DNA of 64,000 bases from the NCBI GenBank assembly GCA_045648665.1, contig JAZROL010000008.1, forward strand, positions 4,064 through 68,063, given 5' to 3'. The notes under the pieces are model-generated. The model did no database searches. It was not told the DNA's origin and saw nothing but the letters and a program-made list of their open reading frames with translations. Source of the stretch: Candidatus Enterousia sp. (GTDB lineage: Bacteria; Pseudomonadota; Alphaproteobacteria; Rs-D84). The position numbers and the translations under genes were made by a program. Position 1 is the first letter of the stretch; each line of letters opens with the position of its first letter. Of this stretch, positions 17,243 through 62,638 are shown piece after piece.

Positions 17243-17318
17243 GTCCCTATAGTTCAACAGGATAGAACAAATCCCTCCTAAGGATTAGATGCAGATTCGA
17301 ATTCTGCTGGGGACGCCA
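17243..17318 (+). tRNA. tRNA-Arg (anticodon CCT)
   Basis: Hand-folded 76-nt cloverleaf: acceptor GTCCCTA/TGGGGAC, D-stem GTTC/GAAC, anticodon stem AATCC/GGATT with loop CTCCTAA, T-arm GCAGA-TTCGAAT-TCTGC, discriminator G, CCA encoded. Confidence 0.8.
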
Positions 17319-17354: not shown

Positions 17355-17448
17355 GAGTGTCCCGCCGTAGCCTTTGGCGAAGGCGGACGGAAAGCCCAAG
17401 TGGTCGTGCAGTGTCCCGCCGTAGCCTTTGGCGAAAGCGGACGGAAAG
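17355..17448. repeat. GC-rich tandem direct repeat (2 copies of ~40 bp: gtgtcccgccgtagcctttggcgaa[g/a]gcggacggaaagc) just 3' of tRNA-Arg
   Basis: Two near-identical units about 54 bp apart, each with an internal ccgcc...ggcgg hairpin. Translated spuriously as MSRRSLWRRRTES.../SRRSLWRKRTES in the ORF track. Confidence 0.7.
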
Positions 17449-17470
17449 CTTGAATATAAAAGGAAAACAG

Positions 17471-47487: not shown

Positions 47488-47886
47488 TTATAGGTATTTT
47501 TTCCATTTTTTATCTCTGTAAACGTCGATAGCGGTTTGAAACCAAAAATCGCGAATATTTCTGGCAGATACTGCCCTCATAAAAGAAATATAGATTTTTG
47601 GATTTAGGCATACATTATCACAAAGATACACATTTTGTATGCCCCAGTTTTCCTTTTCGATTTTGGATAACAATTTACCTATAAATTTATCGCTGTAACA
47701 ATATTTATCCATAAAAAAAGCGGCTTTTTGCATAAAAATATAAACTCTGCCGGGTTTATCAATCATGCCAGACGAAGAAACAAGAATTAATAAAATGTCA
47801 GACAATTTAAAAGTGTTAAAAGTCTGTTCGTTGATTTTTTGAAATTGAACATCCCGAATACAAATGGTCTTGGTTTGATTTACCAT
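47488..47886 (-). CDS. hypothetical protein
   Basis: 132-aa ORF. Preceded on its 5' side by structured repeat copy A and a terminator-like hairpin. Confidence 0.4.
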   Translation of the reverse strand: MVNQTKTICIRDVQFQKINEQTFNTFKLSDILLILVSSSGMIDKPGRVYIFMQKAAFFMDKYCYSDKFIGKLLSKIEKENWGIQNVYLCDNVCLNPKIYISFMRAVSARNIRDFWFQTAIDVYRDKKWKKYL

Positions 47887-47917
47887 TATTTACCCCACAT
47901 AATGTTATAAAAACAAA

Positions 47918-48141
47918 GACCGTCATAAAAAGGCGGTCGGGGAGTTAGAAAATCAGAGTATTTTGATTCCGCATGACCTTTATATATACGCCAACGGCTC
48001 CCCAACCAGCGGTTGGGGGATTTAACGATACCTTTGTACCGAATACTCTGGGCTTTCTAAAGCCCCAGAATCCAATCCCTTGGATTCTGGAGTCATTATA
48101 AACATATTTATTAAAAATTGCAAATTTATATTCTGGTGGCT
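47918..48141. repeat. structured dispersed repeat, copy A (partner 61012..61291)
   Basis: Shared blocks ggcggtcggggagtt, gattccgc, cctttatatatacgc.aacggctccccaacca, agcccc.gaa.ccaat.cc-hairpin, attataaa, ta(t/a)t(t/a)ctggtg. The hairpin arms differ between copies but stay paired (gaatcc/ggattc vs gaacc/ggttc). Confidence 0.6.
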
Positions 48142-48350
48142 TTTGGTGAAACGTATAATCCCACGAACAAAGTTCGTGGGTCCTTCCTCCTCGTAAGATT
48201 CGAACTGCGCTAGGCTTGTTTTTGCCAACTATCGTCCCGACTATGAGTAAGTGAAAACGAGTGTATACGAAGTTTAAACGCTAACGAATGCCGCGCAGGC
48301 GTAAGCCGAGCGAACCGCGGTTCGCTTCCAACCAGTAAGATATTCGGAAT

Positions 48351-48380
48351 ATAAAAAAATACCATCTTTCGATGGTATTT
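48351..48380 (-). terminator. rho-independent terminator downstream of tRNA-Leu/rpmB (minus strand)
   Basis: Perfect hairpin aaataccatc-tttc-gatggtattt followed on the minus strand by a T-run. Confidence 0.6.
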
Positions 48381-48390
48381 TCTTATATTC

Positions 48391-48475
48391 TGGTGGCTCT
48401 GGTCGGAATCGAACCGACACTCCTTTCAGAACTTGATTTTGAGTCAAGCGCGTCTACCAGTTCCGCCACAGAGCC
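48391..48475 (-). tRNA. tRNA-Leu (anticodon CAA)
   Basis: 85 nt on the minus strand: GGCTCTG acceptor, anticodon stem CTTGA/TCAAG with loop CTCAAAA, long variable arm, T-arm TCGG-TTCGATT-CCGA, CCA encoded. Confidence 0.8.
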
Positions 48476-50538: not shown

Positions 50539-52599
50539 TTGATGAATCCAGATGAAGTACAAGAAACACCGCAACAGGCGATTGAAAAATATACAACTGA
50601 TTTTACTAAATTGGCGGCAGACGGAAAATTAGACCCGGTCATAGGGCGCGAAGAAGAAGTTCGCAGAACAATTCAAGTTTTATCGCGTCGTACCAAGAAT
50701 AACCCAGTGTTAATTGGTAATCCTGGTGTTGGTAAAACAGCGATTGTTGAAGGTTTGGCGCAACGTATTGTTTCCGGTGATATGCCTGAAAATTTATTAA
50801 ATAAAAAATTATTGTCGTTGGATATGGGGGCTTTGATGGCGGGCGCTATGTTTCGTGGTCAATTCGAAGGGCGCCTTAAAGCCATATTAAAAGCAGTCAA
50901 AGAATCAAACGGTGAAATAATTTTGTTTATCGATGAATTGCATACTATGGTCGGTGCCGGCAAAGGCGAAGGTTCAATGGATGCCGGTAATTTATTAAAA
51001 CCTATGTTGGCGCGTGGCGAATTGCATTGTGTTGGTGCGACCACTTTGGACGAATATCGTCAATATATTGAAAAAGATCCAGCTTTGGCGCGCCGTTTTC
51101 AACCTGTTTATGTGGATGAACCAACGGTTGATGATACTATTTCTATATTGCGCGGATTAAAAGATAAATACGAAGGCCATCATGGTGTTCGTATTGCAGA
51201 TTCTGCGCTGGTGGCGGCTGTGAAATTGTCTAATCGTTACATAACCGACAGATTTTTGCCAGATAAAGCAATCGATTTAATTGACGAAGCCGCCGCGCGT
51301 GTTCGTATTGAAATTGCTTCAAAACCTGAAAAACTTGATGAATTAGACAGACATTTAATGCAATTAAAAATCGAACAACAGGCACTTAAAAAAGAAAAAG
51401 ACGAAGAATCTAAAAAACGTTTGAAAGATTTAGAGTCTTTGATTGAAAAATTGGATGCAGAATCAAAAGAGATGACCGCAAAATGGGTTGATGAACAAAA
51501 AAAGATGAAGGGTTTATCTGATGCCATGGCCGCATTAGATGCGGCACGTGCAGAGGTTGCCATCGCGATGCGCAATGGTGATTATGAAAAAGCATCGGCA
51601 CTGCAATACGGCAAGATTCCGCAATTAGAGGAAGAAATAAAAAAGCAAAACACAGAATCCAAAGAATATAAAACTGTGTTGCCAGAACATATTGCGGCGG
51701 TTGTGTCTAAATGGACGGGGGTCCCCGCGGACAGATTATCAGTCGAAGAACAATCTAAATTATTAAATATCGAAGATGAATTGCGTAAACGTGTTGTCGG
51801 GCAAGATTATGCTTTGTCTGTTGTTGCACGTGCAATACGTCGTTCGCGTGCAGGTTTATCGGATCCACGCAGGCCATCTGGTTCGTTTATGTTCTTGGGA
51901 CCAACCGGTGTCGGTAAAACAGAGGTCGCAAAAGCATTAGCGGAATATTTATTCAATGATGATACTGCGATGACACGTATTGATATGAGTGAGTATATGG
52001 AACCTCATTCTGTCGCACGTTTAATTGGTGCACCTCCGGGATATGTTGGATATGAAGCGGGCGGTGAATTAACTGAATCTGTTCGTCGTCGCCCTTATCA
52101 GGTGTTGTTGTTTGATGAAATAGAAAAAGCACACCCAGATGTATTTAATGTCTTTTTACAAATACTGGACGATGGACGCCTTACAGACGGGCAGGGACGT
52201 ATTGTTAATTTCACAAATACTATCATAATTATGACAAGTAATTTGCCAAATATGGAAGCAGTGAAAAAACAATTTAGACCTGAATTTATCAACCGTATTG
52301 ATGAAATAGTGTTCTTTAATGCGCTGGGTAAAGACGTAATGGCGGACATTGTAAAGATTCAATTAAAGATTCTTGAAAAACGTCTGGCTGAACGTCAAAT
52401 ATCTTTGCGTGTGACGGATAAAGCAATCAAATGGTTGGGTGATAATGGGTATGATGCAGTCTTTGGTGCGCGTCCATTGAAACGCCTTATCACAACCGCA
52501 GTGGAAGATAAAATCGCAGATTTGATTTTATCTGGCGCAGTTGGCGAAGGTTCAACCGTTAACGTTGACGTTCATGGCAAAGAATTATTGATACAGTAA
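50539..52599 (+). CDS. clpB: ATP-dependent chaperone ClpB lacking the N-terminal domain
   Basis: Two AAA+ modules (GNPGVGKT and GPTGVGKT), coiled-coil M-domain. 686 aa vs ~860 for full ClpB; begins at the NBD1 linker. Confidence 0.85.
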
Positions 52600-52715
52600 T
52601 TTGTATGAATATTAAATACCGTCCTTTTTTAGGACGGTATTTTTTCGTATAAAATCTTCTTGCGCTGGTTGGTGTTTTTTTGTTAAATTTTTCATCGGAA
52701 GAAAAGGATTTTATC

Positions 52716-55746: not shown

Positions 55747-55886
55747 ATTTAGTTTCTTTGTTTTTATGATTATAGACTAAATATATATTTTGTCAATATG
55801 TTTTACGTTTTTTTGTGTTTTTAATTGACTTTCTGTAAATAAATGTATAAAATGTGTGGGCTTTCAGATGAAAGTAGCAAAGTTCT

Positions 55887-55910
55887 GGGGTTGTAGCTCA
55901 GTTGGTAGAG
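55887..55910 (+). repeat. duplicated 5' fragment (24 nt plus 11 nt upstream flank) of tRNA-Ala
   Basis: gcaaagttctggggttgtagctcagttggtagag occurs at 55876..55910 and 55963..55997. Confidence 0.8.
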
Positions 55911-55972: not shown

Positions 55973-56048
55973 GGGGTTGTAGCTCAGTTGGTAGAGCACC
56001 TGCTTTGCAAGCAGGGGGTCGTCAGTTCGAGCCTGATCAGCTCCACCA
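55973..56048 (+). tRNA. tRNA-Ala (anticodon TGC)
   Basis: 76 nt, G3:U70 identity pair, anticodon loop TTTGCAA, T-arm TCGTC-AGTTCGA-GCC..., CCA encoded. Confidence 0.85.
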
Positions 56049-56114: not shown

Positions 56115-56153
56115 TCGTCAGTTCGAGCCTGATCAGCTCCACCAGAATAAAAG
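56115..56153 (+). repeat. 39-bp direct repeat of the tRNA-Ala 3' end plus 9 nt flank (att-like scar)
   Basis: tcgtcagttcgagcctgatcagctccaccagaataaaag present at 56019..56057 (within and just after the tRNA) and again at 56115..56153. A terminator hairpin (gggatgaaaatcccctttttt) follows only the second copy. Confidence 0.8.
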
Positions 56154-56254
56154 GGGATGAAAATCCCCTTTTTTGATATCATATGAAAGTCAAGAAATTT
56201 AATGTTTTTTTATTTCGTTGTGTAATAATGTTCTTATATGATTGTGAATTTATA

Positions 56255-57436: not shown

Positions 57437-58588
57437 ATGACAATGAATAAATCAAAATTTTTAAAAGAAACAGAACTTTGCCAAATGGTGCAAAAACTGT
57501 ATCAACAACAACAGTTGTTATTCAAGATGATGCAAAGTTTTACGAACCAAATAAAATCTACAAATGTAAAAAATAAATCAAACCCACCAACAATCGACTA
57601 TGTATTGAAACGGTTTGTGAACAAAGACAAACAAAACAGTGAAGAACCAGAACGTAAATATAATGCAATAAGCAAATATATAAATGCAGTTGGTTTGAAT
57701 TTGAATGAAAGTTATAATAACTTACATAACGAATTGATATTATCAAAAATTATAAATGCTATTATTGCGCGAACTGATATCAAGGGAAACCAGAAAATTC
57801 GTCATGCGCGATGGATTACTGGTTTTGCAAAGTTCGCTGTGTTCGCGTATCCTGATTTATATAAAACAGATGTTTTAGTTGGTCTGCCTTTGATAGAAAA
57901 AACTCCTAAAAGCGAAAGACAGCCACATACACCATACACAGATTTACAATTAAAGCGTATATTTGATCCGTCCAGGAAATTTTTTCGTAAATATCCGGAT
58001 TTATATTGGGGGTGTATGATAGCACTTTTTACAGGTGCGCGAAAAAATGCGGTATTCACATTGCAATACAAAGATATTTTTATCAAAGATGGATTTTGGT
58101 GTATAAATTTTATCCAAGATTGCCCCGGAATAAAAAAACTTAAAACAGAAGATTCAGAACGTATAGTTCCAATTCATTCTGCGCTGATAAAAATGGGCTT
58201 TTTAGACTACATTAAAAGAAAAATTCATAATTCAAGCACTGGTTTTATATTTGAAAAAATTTGTTTTAATGCGATGGGAAATTTGAATTCGCATATGGTT
58301 AGAAATTTTTTTTATTTTCTGGAACGCATAGGTATAAGAAATTTTGAATCTGGGCGTTATGATTTTCATTCTTTTCGTAAAAACGCAAATATAACAATGG
58401 AAAAATGTGGCATGATACGTTCGTACATAGACAAAATAATCGGTTGGCAGAGCAGGGGCAGTGAAGGTGAACGTTCTTATTCAAATTATACGATAAAGCA
58501 ATTAGCGGACCAGTTGGAATTGTTGCGTTACGATTGTTTGAAAAAAGAATTTAAACAATGGAAAAAGATTATGGCGACAATAGGCTGA
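57437..58588 (+). CDS. phage-type tyrosine recombinase/integrase
   Basis: Catalytic-domain signatures TGARKNA (box I Arg), HSFRKNA (H-x-x-R), C-terminal RSYSNYT (Tyr). Confidence 0.75.
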   Translation: MTMNKSKFLKETELCQMVQKLYQQQQLLFKMMQSFTNQIKSTNVKNKSNPPTIDYVLKRFVNKDKQNSEEPERKYNAISKYINAVGLNLNESYNNLHNELILSKIINAIIARTDIKGNQKIRHARWITGFAKFAVFAYPDLYKTDVLVGLPLIEKTPKSERQPHTPYTDLQLKRIFDPSRKFFRKYPDLYWGCMIALFTGARKNAVFTLQYKDIFIKDGFWCINFIQDCPGIKKLKTEDSERIVPIHSALIKMGFLDYIKRKIHNSSTGFIFEKICFNAMGNLNSHMVRNFFYFLERIGIRNFESGRYDFHSFRKNANITMEKCGMIRSYIDKIIGWQSRGSEGERSYSNYTIKQLADQLELLRYDCLKKEFKQWKKIMATIG

Positions 58589-59470: not shown

Positions 59471-60196
59471 TTATTGTGGTTGTGTTGTACGTAATCTCCA
59501 CCCTGCAAATATATATCCTGGTTTTGTTGGGTTGGTGTCTGGCAAAGTAATGCGTTGACCGTAAATACATTTTTGGGCGGCGGGTTGTACTGTCAGTGGT
59601 GTTGTTGCATTTTCATCCAAATACCATTGTAAATTTATCACTTTATAACATTGCTCAACCGACGTAGACCCAACCGGTGAATACGGCGTATCGTTTGGAC
59701 AGGGATTTAATCCCTGAGGGGTTGTTTCGTTAAATGTAAGTTGTCCACCAGTGCAATAATAGTTTTCCAAACACTGTCTGCATTCATCAACCCCGGCGGG
59801 TAAATAATATCCCGGATTACAATTATGGACATTTGGTGTAAATGTTGCCGTAATATTTGAAACATTATTATATGCTCTCAAAAAATCTTCTTTACAACCA
59901 TTTCTTATATTTTCCGTGACTTGCACTTTGAATTTATTACCCTGATCTAAATATTCATCAAAATAAAAAGTCCCACCATTACAATCATAAACATCGGGAC
60001 ACACAACACAACCGTCATTATTCGCCGGAACATAATACCCAGAATTACATTGATATTGATTAGGTGCAAAGGTAGCCAACAGCAAAGTATCATTATTTAA
60101 ACCAGATGAACAACCATTTGGGACATTAGACACTATTACTTGGTCTGCAAATGCAGGTAAAGGTATTATTAAAAATAATAACCATTTATATTTCAT
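59471..60196 (-). CDS. secreted Cys-rich protein with C-terminal Flg_new (Listeria/Bacteroides-type) repeat
   Basis: Signal peptide; many Cys; terminal ...PGYIFAGWRL. Start overlaps the stop of the upstream gene (TAATG). Confidence 0.55.
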   Translation of the reverse strand: MKYKWLLFLIIPLPAFADQVIVSNVPNGCSSGLNNDTLLLATFAPNQYQCNSGYYVPANNDGCVVCPDVYDCNGGTFYFDEYLDQGNKFKVQVTENIRNGCKEDFLRAYNNVSNITATFTPNVHNCNPGYYLPAGVDECRQCLENYYCTGGQLTFNETTPQGLNPCPNDTPYSPVGSTSVEQCYKVINLQWYLDENATTPLTVQPAAQKCIYGQRITLPDTNPTKPGYIFAGWRLRTTQPQ

Positions 60197-60975
60197 TATT
60201 GTAAAACCGGACCCGCTACAAATTGACCTGTGCCTTGGTTGTAATAAAATTTTTGTTCGACTTTATCATACATACAAGGGGTTCTATTATAATCAAGAGC
60301 GGGTATAAAATCACGGACAAGATTGTTATTATCATCATAAATCTTCACATAATATATCCTTCCTTTCATTGATTCTGATGTTAAACTTGATGAACGATTA
60401 TAAGTAAAAATATAAATTGAACCATTGTTAGAAATATAATTTGCATCTTGTGTAGATATAACTTTTTCGTTGTTAATTTTTAGATATTTATCATTATGAA
60501 CAAAACTAACTTGGAACAAATAATCTTGTCCAATATCAAATGTCGATGTTGAAGAGTAATCGCTTCCAGAAGAAATTGCCCAGTTATTTGTTGTGCGATA
60601 TCTACCGAATTTATTGCCCGCTGCAACACTTGGAAAATCACCGCCAAGAACACCAGCCCAACTGTTTTGAGAACCAACAAATCTCATCTTACCGACGGCT
60701 GTATATCCTTGTTGTTTTGGTGTATAACCTGTATTTATGTACTGTGTTCCTGTGCTTTCCAAATACTCAATCGGTCTGTAATTTAATATTTTCCATCCAG
60801 TAAAAGTATACCCGTATCTTGTTGGAGCAGTTGCTGGTAATATTAAATCGCTATCTATTACACATGTTGAATTTTCGTATACAGTTCCGTCATCATTTAA
60901 CCAATGCAAGTTTATTGTATCTGCGCATACCGTATTACAGAATAGTAATGATAATAATATTAAAAACCGTTTCAT
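60196..60975 (-). CDS. secreted protein with Flg_new-type repeat (GYTFTGW)
   Basis: Start at MKRFLILLSLLFCNTVCA (RBS GAGGGG); YGYTFTGWKI motif. Confidence 0.55.
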   Translation of the reverse strand: MKRFLILLSLLFCNTVCADTINLHWLNDDGTVYENSTCVIDSDLILPATAPTRYGYTFTGWKILNYRPIEYLESTGTQYINTGYTPKQQGYTAVGKMRFVGSQNSWAGVLGGDFPSVAAGNKFGRYRTTNNWAISSGSDYSSTSTFDIGQDYLFQVSFVHNDKYLKINNEKVISTQDANYISNNGSIYIFTYNRSSSLTSESMKGRIYYVKIYDDNNNLVRDFIPALDYNRTPCMYDKVEQKFYYNQGTGQFVAGPVLQ

Positions 60976-61011
60976 CTCTTTCCCCTCTTTTTTGAACGAC
61001 ACTAAAATTAC

Positions 61012-61291
61012 ACCGCCAAGAAACTGGCGGTCGGGGAGTTCTCAAATCATAATACGTGAATGATTCCGCGGCCTTTATATATACGCTAACGGCTCCCCAA
61101 CCAAGTGGTCAGGGATACAAACGGTGCAAGAACACCGAAAAATACCAAATAACGATGCCTTCGCACCGCACGTATTAAAGGCTTGAGATAGCCCCGAACC
61201 CAATTCCTCAGGTTCTTGTTCATTATAAAATATCGTGTTTTAAATGTAAACAGAAAAAACTTTGTGATACATAACAAAAATAATCTGGTGC
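61012..61291. repeat. structured dispersed repeat, copy B (partner 47918..48141)
   Basis: See copy A. Located immediately 5' of the minus-strand gene 60196..60975. Confidence 0.6.
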
Positions 61292-61323: not shown

Positions 61324-61590
61324 ATGAAAAATAATACGATTTTACATCTTGTGTTAACAGCTTTTTGGTTCAACAAAATTGTGTCTGGGGAAAAGACGGC
61401 GGAATATCGTAAATGTTCTACATATTGGAACCGGCGATTAACAAAAGGACATTATGATACTGTTGTTTTTCATCGTGGTTATACTAGTATAACCGCCGAA
61501 TATAAAATAATTTCTATTAATATAACAACAGAAAAAAATGATTTAAATTTAGCCAAATGCTGGGAAATTAAATTGGCGCCACGTTCATAA
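61324..61590 (+). CDS. ASCH (PUA-like) domain protein
   Basis: 88 aa; ILHLVLTAFWFNKIVSGEKTAEYR matches the ASCH N-terminal beta-barrel pattern. Confidence 0.5.
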   Translation: MKNNTILHLVLTAFWFNKIVSGEKTAEYRKCSTYWNRRLTKGHYDTVVFHRGYTSITAEYKIISINITTEKNDLNLAKCWEIKLAPRS

Positions 61591-61603
61591 CAAACTAAAT
61601 TTT

Positions 61604-62638
61604 TTAATTTTGTCTTTTATTCGATTCAAGTATTATACTATTTATCTTTGCGCCCAAAATAACATCTGGCGATGATATGATATTTTTACTTTGAATCGCG
61701 TTTTGAAATTGTAATACATCGTTTGCTATATTTGGAAATTGTACAGCCTTTAATTTTATATGCACTTTATCATCTGGGTTTAAATATTTTGTGTTACCTG
61801 CATTGCCTTTTTGAACGAATACGCCGCCAAGTCCTGAATCTTTATTATAACTGTGTTCGATTACATAATCGTTAATTGGAAAATCAGGGTTTTGCAAATG
61901 TTCTTTATAAATCGGTTGATAGAAAGTAATTGATTCTTTGTTCGGTATAAATGTTTGAATCACAGGATTGGTGATTTTATTTCGACCTTTGATAAAATCT
62001 GCAGATAAAGTACCTGTGAAAACATCTTCTATCTTTACATTGGCGAGCCCAGGAAATCCAAGTCTTGAAGAAACCAAATTATTATTAGAGGCATTGAAAA
62101 AGTAATAATCGTTTATAACCATTGAAAAAGCAGATGGACAATAATTAAATAACTGCGTTTGTGTGCCATTAAAATAAATGCCTTTGTTTTCGTCGTTGGA
62201 CAATTGTAGTTTTTGAATTGATAACATTCTGTCTGTTTTTGCAACGCGAGAATCAATAAAGAAATGTGGCATAACATCTTGTTTTAATTTTGAGTCATGA
62301 TACATATTTGAAAGCCATAATCCAACACGAACTTTGTCAAACCAATCCATTAATAAACTTGCTGCTGAACCAGAAATAGCTTGCCCTGATAAAATTTTTT
62401 CTAATACTGGTTTTACAGCCGATTCCATTTTTGCATATTTAGAATTACATTCTGTGCATGCAGGAAAAGTAAAACGCATAAAAGGAATATGTTTTTCTGC
62501 GTCAGGGTATAAAGAAAATATATCCCCAGTATCTGATTTTTCTCGTCCTGTCATTCTAATCAGCCATTGCGGAATAACATGTTCCAGATTTTTATCTTTC
62601 GGTTTTTCGCCACAAAATATGCAAAATTTTTCAGACAT
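61604..62638 (-). CDS. HNH-nuclease-domain protein (344 aa) with large uncharacterised C-terminal region
   Basis: N-terminal CxxC...EHVIPQW...CTECN HNH/Zn-finger arrangement. Remaining ~270 aa not recognisable. Confidence 0.55.
   Translation of the reverse strand: MSEKFCIFCGEKPKDKNLEHVIPQWLIRMTGREKSDTGDIFSLYPDAEKHIPFMRFTFPACTECNSKYAKMESAVKPVLEKILSGQAISGSAASLLMDWFDKVRVGLWLSNMYHDSKLKQDVMPHFFIDSRVAKTDRMLSIQKLQLSNDENKGIYFNGTQTQLFNYCPSAFSMVINDYYFFNASNNNLVSSRLGFPGLANVKIEDVFTGTLSADFIKGRNKITNPVIQTFIPNKESITFYQPIYKEHLQNPDFPINDYVIEHSYNKDSGLGGVFVQKGNAGNTKYLNPDDKVHIKLKAVQFPNIANDVLQFQNAIQSKNIISSPDVILGAKINSIILESNKRQN

Follow-up and report, generated by a model that had tools for sequence, protein, structure and literature searches.

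What a folded repeat standing twice ahead of accessory genes does for its host is the question raised by the window analyzed here, i.e., a stretch of 64 kb from Candidatus Enterousia sp. (contig JAZROL010000008.1, positions 4,064 to 68,063). The two copies, hereafter copy A (promoter plus RNA, 47907-48123) and copy B (61000-61250), lie on the minus strand, 13 kb apart among housekeeping genes, and each is composed of a sigma-70 promoter, a multi-helix RNA of 180-217 nucleotides (nt), an intrinsic terminator and a ribosome-binding site with its ATG. From the sequence evidence gathered below, we put at roughly 65% the probability that this module is a cis-acting transcription-attenuation leader for genes encoding secreted and surface proteins. 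Large, well-folded bacterial RNAs absent from databases are now rare, and most earlier examples proved to be riboswitches, ribozymes or ribonucleoprotein components. The interest of the present element lies in its size, its copy number, its host lineage and the support that covariation lends to two pairing schemes. Its hosts are uncultured Alphaproteobacteria of the gut and rumen, known only from metagenome-assembled genomes (MAGs), and we know of no study of regulation in these organisms. The apparent targets are surface and secreted proteins, hence the genes likeliest to matter for life in the host, and a leader placed before many different genes of this kind would tie the whole set to one signal.

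Extent of the repeat in the window

The first-pass annotation of this DNA had described a structured repeat present twice, the first copy extending up to 48390. Two copies are indeed present, and both pattern searches and the covariance model found only these two in 64 kb, an additional model match at 52581-52650 (20 bits, 26% G+C) being judged spurious. The extent proposed for the first copy was in contrast too large, the repeat measuring about 220-250 bp and copy A having its upper end near 48125. Within these units, the covariance model places the RNA of copy A at 47907-48088 (153 bits, E = 4.7e-48) and that of copy B at 61000-61216 (189.8 bits), both on the minus strand. The two copies are 74% identical over ~250 aligned columns, and the ordered blocks reported to be common to them were recovered: GGCGGTCGGGGAGTT is exact in both copies (at 47932 and 61026), and the 32-mer CCTTTATATATACGCNAACGGCTCCCCAACCA occurs at 47977 and 61072 with one position differing, 0 chance matches being expected.

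Homologues in uncultured gut and rumen bacteria

More than 75 homologues were collected in total through a genome scan, a metagenome scan and a protein-anchored search. Among 185,579 species genomes scanned for the central 21-mer, there was one true homologue, along with one chance match in a coding region; the true one, found in a rumen MAG of the uncultured proteobacterium RUG12675 (CACZJK01), is also located ahead of a gene for a protein with Listeria-Bacteroides (Flg_new) repeats. The MAG GCA_017528045.1 is another carrier of the element. The metagenome scan for GGTTGGGGAGCC...CTCCCCGACC returned 67 loci, about 65 of them true (loci L001 and L054 are chance matches to the pattern, and L053 matches the pattern and not the model), including one locus with two tandem units (L046). 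A covariance model of 216 positions and 60 pairs (R1) recovered the true pattern loci as well as four divergent copies that miss the pattern.

To avoid the bias of a sequence pattern, a further set of loci was fetched via the downstream protein alone. The Flg_new protein encoded after copy B has 1219 homologues, some of which are named by NCBI as 'Alphaproteobacteria bacterium' MAGs, and the protein-anchored loci comprise those of six Flg_new homologues and of two homologues of the 132-amino-acid protein encoded after copy A. All eight distinct loci have the RNA (42-172 bits), its end lying 16-25 nt ahead of the start codon, and two more copies were located elsewhere within them. One locus also contains a permuted transfer-messenger RNA, which is typical of Alphaproteobacteria and of a few other groups. 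The core 21-mer had no match in viral contigs, and no similarity to the element was found in phage and plasmid collections.

RNA structure and covariation

The RNA opens with a 5' hairpin, P1, whose arms correspond to the sequences gaatcc/ggattc and gaacc/ggttc, which had drawn attention as differing between the two copies while remaining paired. Across 64 homologues, 8 of the 8 pairs of P1 show compensatory changes, a result that confirms this observation and shows the P1 arms to be conserved in a family reaching beyond the two copies of the window. P1 is followed by a long closing stem (P2a, P2b and P2c), two inner segments of which are rewritten in almost every copy with pairing kept. This stem encloses a junction of P3 (CGGUGC-tetraloop-GCAUCG), an optional P4, P5 (AUCCCUGACC...GGUUGGGGA) and P6, and the terminator hairpin abuts it.

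In the 64-sequence model alignment, standard pairs occupy 96.5% of the pair cells versus 84.0% in column shuffles, a value reached by none of 500 shuffles, and 38 of the 60 pairs are changed on both sides; when the partners are slid by 1-3 columns, pairing falls to 33-53%. The ten distinct protein-anchored sequences gave a similar picture (94.2% paired versus 74.1% in shuffles, 40 of 60 pairs compensated). Having been fitted to the model, the alignments are biased in its favor; even so, fitting alone would hardly produce the contrast with the slid controls or a long stem with four to five pair types per column. In addition, the pairing includes 394 G·U cells versus 27 A·C cells, and the folding strand is therefore the sense strand of the downstream gene. 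Both copies of the window fold better than their shuffled sequences, with z-scores of -4.8 for copy A and -5.3 for copy B.

Taken at face value, two copies sharing blocks 13 kb apart could have arisen from a recent local duplication devoid of function. With an identity of 74%, stems fully rewritten yet paired, and more than 75 homologues in many metagenomes and MAGs, this explanation has a probability close to nil, and the homologue count, the covariation and the protein-anchored loci together refute it. The first-pass annotation had likewise favored selection on structure over recent duplication, in agreement with the number of homologues, the strong covariation and the sense-strand-specific G·U pairs.

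The loop of P6, GUAUAUAUAAAG, corresponds to the 'TATATATA box' and is replaced by a GNRA tetraloop or an extended arm in a subclass of the family; the copy A orthologues of loci L070 and L071 have this loop likewise replaced. A promoter role for the box was ruled out by its position in the P6 loop, a poor -35 spacing and the GNRA replacement in the subclass and in the orthologues. We infer that the P6 loop behaves as a peripheral tertiary-contact loop rather than as a DNA box. As for a leader peptide, no conserved open reading frame (ORF) was found inside the RNA, the only candidate being a 9-codon ORF created by an AUGC insertion and restricted to the copies that lack P4 ('A-type' copies).

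A conserved module from promoter to gene

Upstream of the RNA, a sigma-70 match of at least 9/12 was found in 61 of 73 regions (84%) versus 16% of shuffles, and the end of the -10 box precedes the first position of the RNA model by 6-7 nt in 55 of those 61 regions. From this fixed distance of the -10 box, P1 is the expected start of the transcript. At the other end, essentially all copies have a terminator hairpin with a U-run after CUCCCCGACC, and 4 pairs of the terminator stem show double changes. A co-oriented ORF comes after the RNA in the pattern-derived loci, its start being 27-55 nt past CUCCCCGACC in 39 of about 63 and 76-297 nt past it in most of the remaining ones, with hairpin-rich sequence in between. 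The gap between terminator and start codon is too short for a second promoter. Promoter, folded RNA, terminator and gene are thus laid out alike in more than 75 homologues, which supports the reading, already put forward for the two copies, of a shared riboswitch-like or attenuator leader.

The downstream genes mostly encode signal-peptide proteins (Flg_new/InlB-B-repeat, Listeria-Bacteroides repeats); the others code for proteins with YadA-like sequence words, a lipoprotein, an XRE-type regulator and a cytoplasmic family of 120-133 amino acids. The latter, homologous to the gene after copy A, goes with the A-type copies. In L078 (9785-16245), the leader is followed on one strand by a Flg_new gene, a gene for a 256-amino-acid protein and genes for VirB8, CagX (VirB9-like) and TrbI (VirB10-like), so that some type IV secretion genes of this locus may be under its control as well. 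Phage-like genes are found beside the leader/Flg_new operon in L074 (1040-7904 and 15452-16483) and L081 (1-9594), among them T7-type capsid proteins in both, a tail protein in L074 and a terminase fragment in L081; a reverse-transcriptase gene is located ~5 kb from the operon in L074.

Genes following the leader also differ from their neighbors in their ribosome-binding sites. In the window (47890-47900 and 60978-60990) and in loci L070-L081, GGGG occurs in the Shine-Dalgarno region of 19 of 43 leader-following genes (44%) versus 4 of 90 other genes of the same genomes (4%), the latter having mostly AAGGA (Fisher p = 6e-8). The same motif is present in the ribosome-binding site of 9 of the 11 pattern-independent copies.

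These data bear directly on the possibility that the element is a stand-alone small RNA (sRNA) gene, acting in trans or sequestering a protein, its position before a gene being incidental or allowing only basal read-through. An sRNA gene would be expected to possess a strong promoter of its own and a good terminator, as found here; some sRNA families are likewise multi-copy, and weak Rfam matches to sRNA-Xcc1 (22-27 bits) point in the same direction. On the contrary, a co-oriented gene always comes next, its distance being short and fixed with no room for another promoter, and the ribosome-binding sites downstream are specifically G-rich, an association which speaks for a single unit of leader and gene and not for a stand-alone sRNA. 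Moreover, the long stems are hypervariable among copies of one genome and would fit poorly with a shared trans-acting seed. With the pairing data presented below, we consider an sRNA gene rather unlikely.

Alternative pairings and a proposed switch

The attenuation leader that we favor finds a possible mechanism in the complementarity between short segments of the RNA. The C-rich segments e (AGCCC), c (AUCCCUGACC) and d (CUCCCCGACC) are complementary to the G-rich segments a (GGGG) and b (GGUUGGGGAG) and to the ribosome-binding site of the gene, the GGGG of which matches b. The near-invariant segment b is complementary both to c, with which it forms P5, and to d, and d ends in GACC, four bases with which the terminator stem also begins. 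The minimum-energy fold has a paired with d, c paired with b, and the terminator formed.

For the alternative pairing, b and d are complementary at 8-10 of 10 bp in each of the ten distinct b/d haplotypes, and four positions carry compensatory changes (G-C to A-U, G-C to U-A, A-U to G-C or U-A, and G-C to U-A). Two divergent copies have concerted changes in a, c, b and d at the equivalent position, which would follow from b having to match both partners. The b:d pairing would be accompanied by two local hairpins, namely GGGGCU:AGCCC, with a P2b strand as loop, and AAUCA:UGAUU, with a P2c strand as loop, and both show compensatory changes. Altogether, b:d and these two hairpins are 96.1% paired, with 10 pairs double-changed versus 2.1 in shuffles.

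In the default state, c would pair with b, the closing stem and the terminator would form as well, and transcription would end about 15-25 nt before the ribosome-binding site of the gene. Upon a signal, b would pair with d, yielding a three-way junction with P6 and the small AAUCA/UGAUU hairpin; once formed, b:d would block the terminator and RNA polymerase would read into the gene. In the terms of a three-segment attenuator, c would be the anti-antiterminator, b:d the antiterminator, and d with the downstream arm the terminator. Candidate signals include a small-molecule ligand, an RNA-binding antiterminator protein, and a kinetic or temperature effect.

Several observations weigh against this proposal. 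A fold with b:d imposed lies 11.1 ± 3.1 kcal/mol above the minimum-energy fold, and a factor or a kinetic route would therefore be needed. The search pattern fixed b and d for most homologues, so that only ~14 sequences inform the b/d covariation. Of all helices, the closing a:d has the lowest pairing (86.8%), and the local hairpin GGGGCU:AGCCC, a competitor, covaries too, so that the switching scheme given here is provisional; the local hairpins might also coexist with the long stem as loop-strand contacts instead of being alternates. In addition, ~19 loci have an extra 80-250 nt between terminator and ORF, and the downstream genes point to no metabolite. The greater stability of the terminated fold, by ~11 kcal/mol, speaks for the sRNA explanation, against which stand the two apparently mutually exclusive partners of b.

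The extra 80-250 nt (for instance L012:640-790, L046:3335-3425, L048 and L065) are rich in hairpins such as UUCUCCCCCUGAGGGGGAG and GGACCGUGAAUCCGUC, and this stretch could be a second regulatory element.

Going further, the element could be a new class of riboswitch or a protein-dependent antitermination system that places secreted, adhesin-like and secretion-system genes of these uncultured gut and rumen Alphaproteobacteria under one signal, which may be a second messenger or a host-derived molecule toggling the RNA between the two covariation-supported folds. In this reading, the 125-132-amino-acid protein encoded after the A-type copies could be the partner acting in trans. We hold this last proposal as tentative. 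With more than 75 representatives, covariation, a clear gene context and a terminator logic, the leader is directly testable in vitro, and an identified signal would offer a first handle on how these Alphaproteobacteria sense their environment.

The two copies and their genes

All features of the two copies are on the minus strand. The promoter of copy A (48095-48123) combines a -35 box TTGCAA (48118-48123), a 17-nt spacer and a -10 box TATAAT (48095-48100). Its RNA (47907-48088) is of the short A-type, without helix P4, and comprises P1 (48068-48087), segment a, GGGG (48063-48066), the long-range stem (5' strands 48042-48059, 3' strands 47946-47962), P3 (48026-48041), P5 (47998-48019) and P6 with its GUAUAUAUAAAG loop (47969-47997). 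Segment b, GGUUGGGGAG, occupies 47998-48007, and the complementary segment d, CUCCCCGACC, 47935-47944, where it overlaps the 5' arm of the intrinsic terminator. The latter (47907-47938) is made of GACCGCC-loop-GACGGUC (47918-47938), a stem helix that covaries, followed by UUUGUUUUU.

The gene after copy A (47488-47886) has a G-rich ribosome-binding site, GUGGGG, and an ATG at 47886; it encodes a protein of 132 amino acids to which no function could be assigned, as no sequence match was found in Pfam, NCBIfam, PHROG or PDB. Its AlphaFold2 model has a predicted local distance difference test score (pLDDT) of 72, the best Foldseek match in PDB has E = 0.14, and a search of 1.84 billion representatives returned only 11 clusters.

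Copy B belongs to the full-length class. Its promoter (61222-61250; -35 TTTACA at 61245-61250, 17-nt spacer, -10 TATAAT at 61222-61227) has 11/12 matches, and its RNA (61000-61216) includes P1 (61196-61215), segment a (61192-61195), the long-range stem (5' strands 61169-61188, 3' strands 61040-61058), P3 (61153-61168), P4 (61122-61137), P5 (61093-61115), P6 (61066-61092) and segment d (61029-61038). The terminator (61000-61032), found by a terminator scan, consists of the hairpin GACCGCCAG-UUUC-UUGGCGGUG (61011-61032) and of UAAUUUUAG. A terminator-like hairpin and T-run had been predicted ~40 nt ahead of each accessory gene; hairpin and U-run are as described, the distance from terminator stem to gene start being however 31 nt for copy A and 35 nt for copy B.

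Copy B precedes a two-gene operon (59471-60975). The first gene (60196-60975; ATG at 60975, ribosome-binding site GAGGGGAAAGAG) codes for a protein with a signal peptide and a Listeria-Bacteroides (Flg_new) repeat, the second (59471-60196) for a Cys-rich/Flg_new protein. Directly upstream of the copy B promoter and on the opposite strand (61324-62638) are an 88-amino-acid ASCH-domain gene (PHROG 625) and then a gene for a 344-amino-acid protein with a weakly HNH-like N-terminus, both of which look accessory or phage-derived.

tRNA-end duplications and DNA-level elements

The span first assigned to copy A took in the 3' end of a tRNA gene, whose duplication had also been noticed and is exact. 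The 15-nt sequence TATATTCTGGTGGCT occurs at 48127-48141 and again at 48384-48398, where it represents the 3' end of tRNA-Leu-CAA plus trailer, and no shuffle gave two matches. An att-type origin had been contemplated for the repeat on this basis; it applies to the adjoining 242-bp segment between the two tRNA-Leu duplicates (48142-48383) and not to the repeat itself. This segment holds no gene, hence no integrase, and the tRNA-end direct repeats bound DNA absent from the syntenic locus L071, in which L28, tRNA-Leu, an A-type leader, the 132-amino-acid protein gene, NrdG and NrdD follow one another without the 15-nt repeat or the 242-bp segment. The interval 48127-48398 (minus strand), outside the RNA family, is thus the att-like scar left at a tRNA 3' end by a small insertion without genes, of a recurrent kind in this lineage, and the 242-bp segment would be a remnant or a non-autonomous element.

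Comparable arrangements exist in other loci. In L070, an A-type module comes after tRNA-Met and a ~30-nt duplicate of the tRNA 3' end bounds ~155 bp; L072 has three repeats of the tRNA-Tyr 3' end, spaced by segments of 165-220 bp, one of which is 83.5% identical to window positions 48238-48314. These tRNA-bounded segments look like small non-autonomous insertions targeting tRNA 3' ends. The word ta(t/a)t(t/a)ctggtg, which had been listed among the blocks shared by the two copies, is such a tRNA-3'-end word and falls outside the repeat family: words of this type are present in 4 of 71 homologous upstream regions, i.e., those of the two window copies, L070 and L071, and absent from the other 67.

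Could the whole family then be a DNA-level element, either an integron attC-like cassette site or a miniature mobile element with inverted repeats folding as DNA? Such an element would explain why many copies stand before varied cargo and close to tRNA/att scars: the genes downstream are diverse in the manner of cassettes, two units stand in tandem in L046, and copy A and its orthologues adjoin tRNA genes with att-like duplications. Furthermore, CCCCAAC...GGTTGGGG resembles attC core sites at 6/7 positions, and the weak Rfam match is to an integron-borne sRNA. However, the family keeps its promoter and terminator at constant positions and correctly oriented, and the G·U excess designates the gene-sense strand as the one that folds, although this excess, taken alone, is also compatible with a single-stranded DNA site. 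Most copies lack tRNA-end words upstream, as just described, no arrays of the integron type were found, the units are not flanked by target-site duplications and the plasmid and phage collections gave no match. An integron attC site or cassette is itself ruled out by core-like motifs located just 3-30 nt apart versus the 57-141 bp required between RYYYAAC and GTTRRRY cores, by a promoter in each unit, by the dispersal of the two copies among housekeeping genes and by the nature of the sole integrase of the window (57437-58588), which is phage-type and near tRNA-Ala. We hence regard a DNA-level element as highly improbable, and a leader RNA as the preferred explanation.

Other duplications and repeats were recorded around tRNA genes. 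A piece of ~70 nt, CAAGTAGATT...GAGGGA, recurs at L071:9640-9710, L070:9612-9700, L043:12027-12089, L057:502-564, L007:831-919 and L074:11514-11589, being just downstream of a tRNA gene in L070, L071, L043 and L057; two hairpins in it covary between L070 and L071 (GAUUUUGG/CCAAAAUC versus GAUUACAC/GUGUAAUC), and it has no Rfam match. Around tRNA-Ala (55973-56048), the 5' part of the gene occurs again at 55877-55910, 86 bp upstream, and its 3' half at 56115-56163, 96 bp downstream, the phage-type integrase gene being 1.4 kb beyond, whereas in L071 the S21 and DHFR genes directly follow tRNA-Ala; this suggests an integrated island at this site of the window. Finally, downstream of tRNA-Arg (17243-17318), two G+C-rich hairpin units of 40 nt (AGTGTCCCGCCGTAGCCTTTGGCGAAGGCGGACGGAAAGC) that are 98% identical lie 54 bp apart (17356-17449).

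Comparison with known RNA families and regulatory systems

At Rfam 15 gathering thresholds, five tRNAs were the only hits in the whole window. A permissive scan (E up to 10) of both copies, L070 and 16 homologous loci gave nothing near a gathering score, a literature search did not return the signature words of the RNA, and the first 200 of the 408 supplementary files of a survey of structured RNAs in the human microbiome (PMC8040213) contain no match.

The closest, albeit weak, resemblance is to sRNA-Xcc1 (RF02221), an sRNA of Xanthomonas integron cassettes, with 22.2 bits at 47928-48006 and 27.1 bits in L025, below the gathering score of 53. The two have in common an outer G-rich/C-rich stem, two hairpins inside and a U-run, in an alignment running from b to d. 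They differ in that the match spans only the 3' third of the element and that no integron context was seen.

In its organization, the element recalls the cyclic di-GMP (c-di-GMP) riboswitches of class I (GEMM, RF01051) and class II (RF01786), which also form a 5' leader from promoter to gene with a covarying multi-helix domain and a terminator directly after it, and which also occur in several copies per genome before secreted, adhesin-like and secretion-system genes (for the element, VirB8/CagX/TrbI in L078). Neither class gave a match at E up to 10 in both copies and 16 homologous loci. The element is much larger (~200 nt), lacks the sequence or structure of any Rfam 15 riboswitch, and has its triple complementarity of b, c and d inside the conserved core and not in a separate platform.

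T-box leaders and three-segment attenuators (1:2, 2:3, 3:4) offer another parallel, with leaders of ~200-300 nt and a conserved sequence engaged either in an antiterminator or in a terminator; similarly, b of the element is complementary to c and d, and d overlaps the terminator. The T-box model (RF00230) had no match at E up to 10 in the two copies, and their downstream genes encode secreted or unassigned proteins. Unlike T-boxes, the element has no specifier loop, no T-box sequence and no context of aminoacyl-tRNA synthetase or amino-acid genes; unlike attenuators, it has no conserved leader peptide, and ~60 nt and two hairpins separate b from d.

Processive antitermination leaders, such as the 5' untranslated regions (UTRs) of UpxY in Bacteroides, LoaP leaders, EAR and the phage put RNA, provide an analogy only: they too are conserved leaders repeated before surface-structure loci with terminators to overcome. 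In contrast to these systems, no NusG-like gene is linked to the units of the element.

With respect to these families, the element ends in both copies and in essentially all homologues with the G+C-rich hairpin and U-run of an intrinsic terminator and, as attenuators and riboswitches do, it forms a 5' UTR with a covarying structured domain between a promoter and a co-oriented gene. It is a previously uncatalogued family of structured RNA of a known general kind, the leader RNAs.

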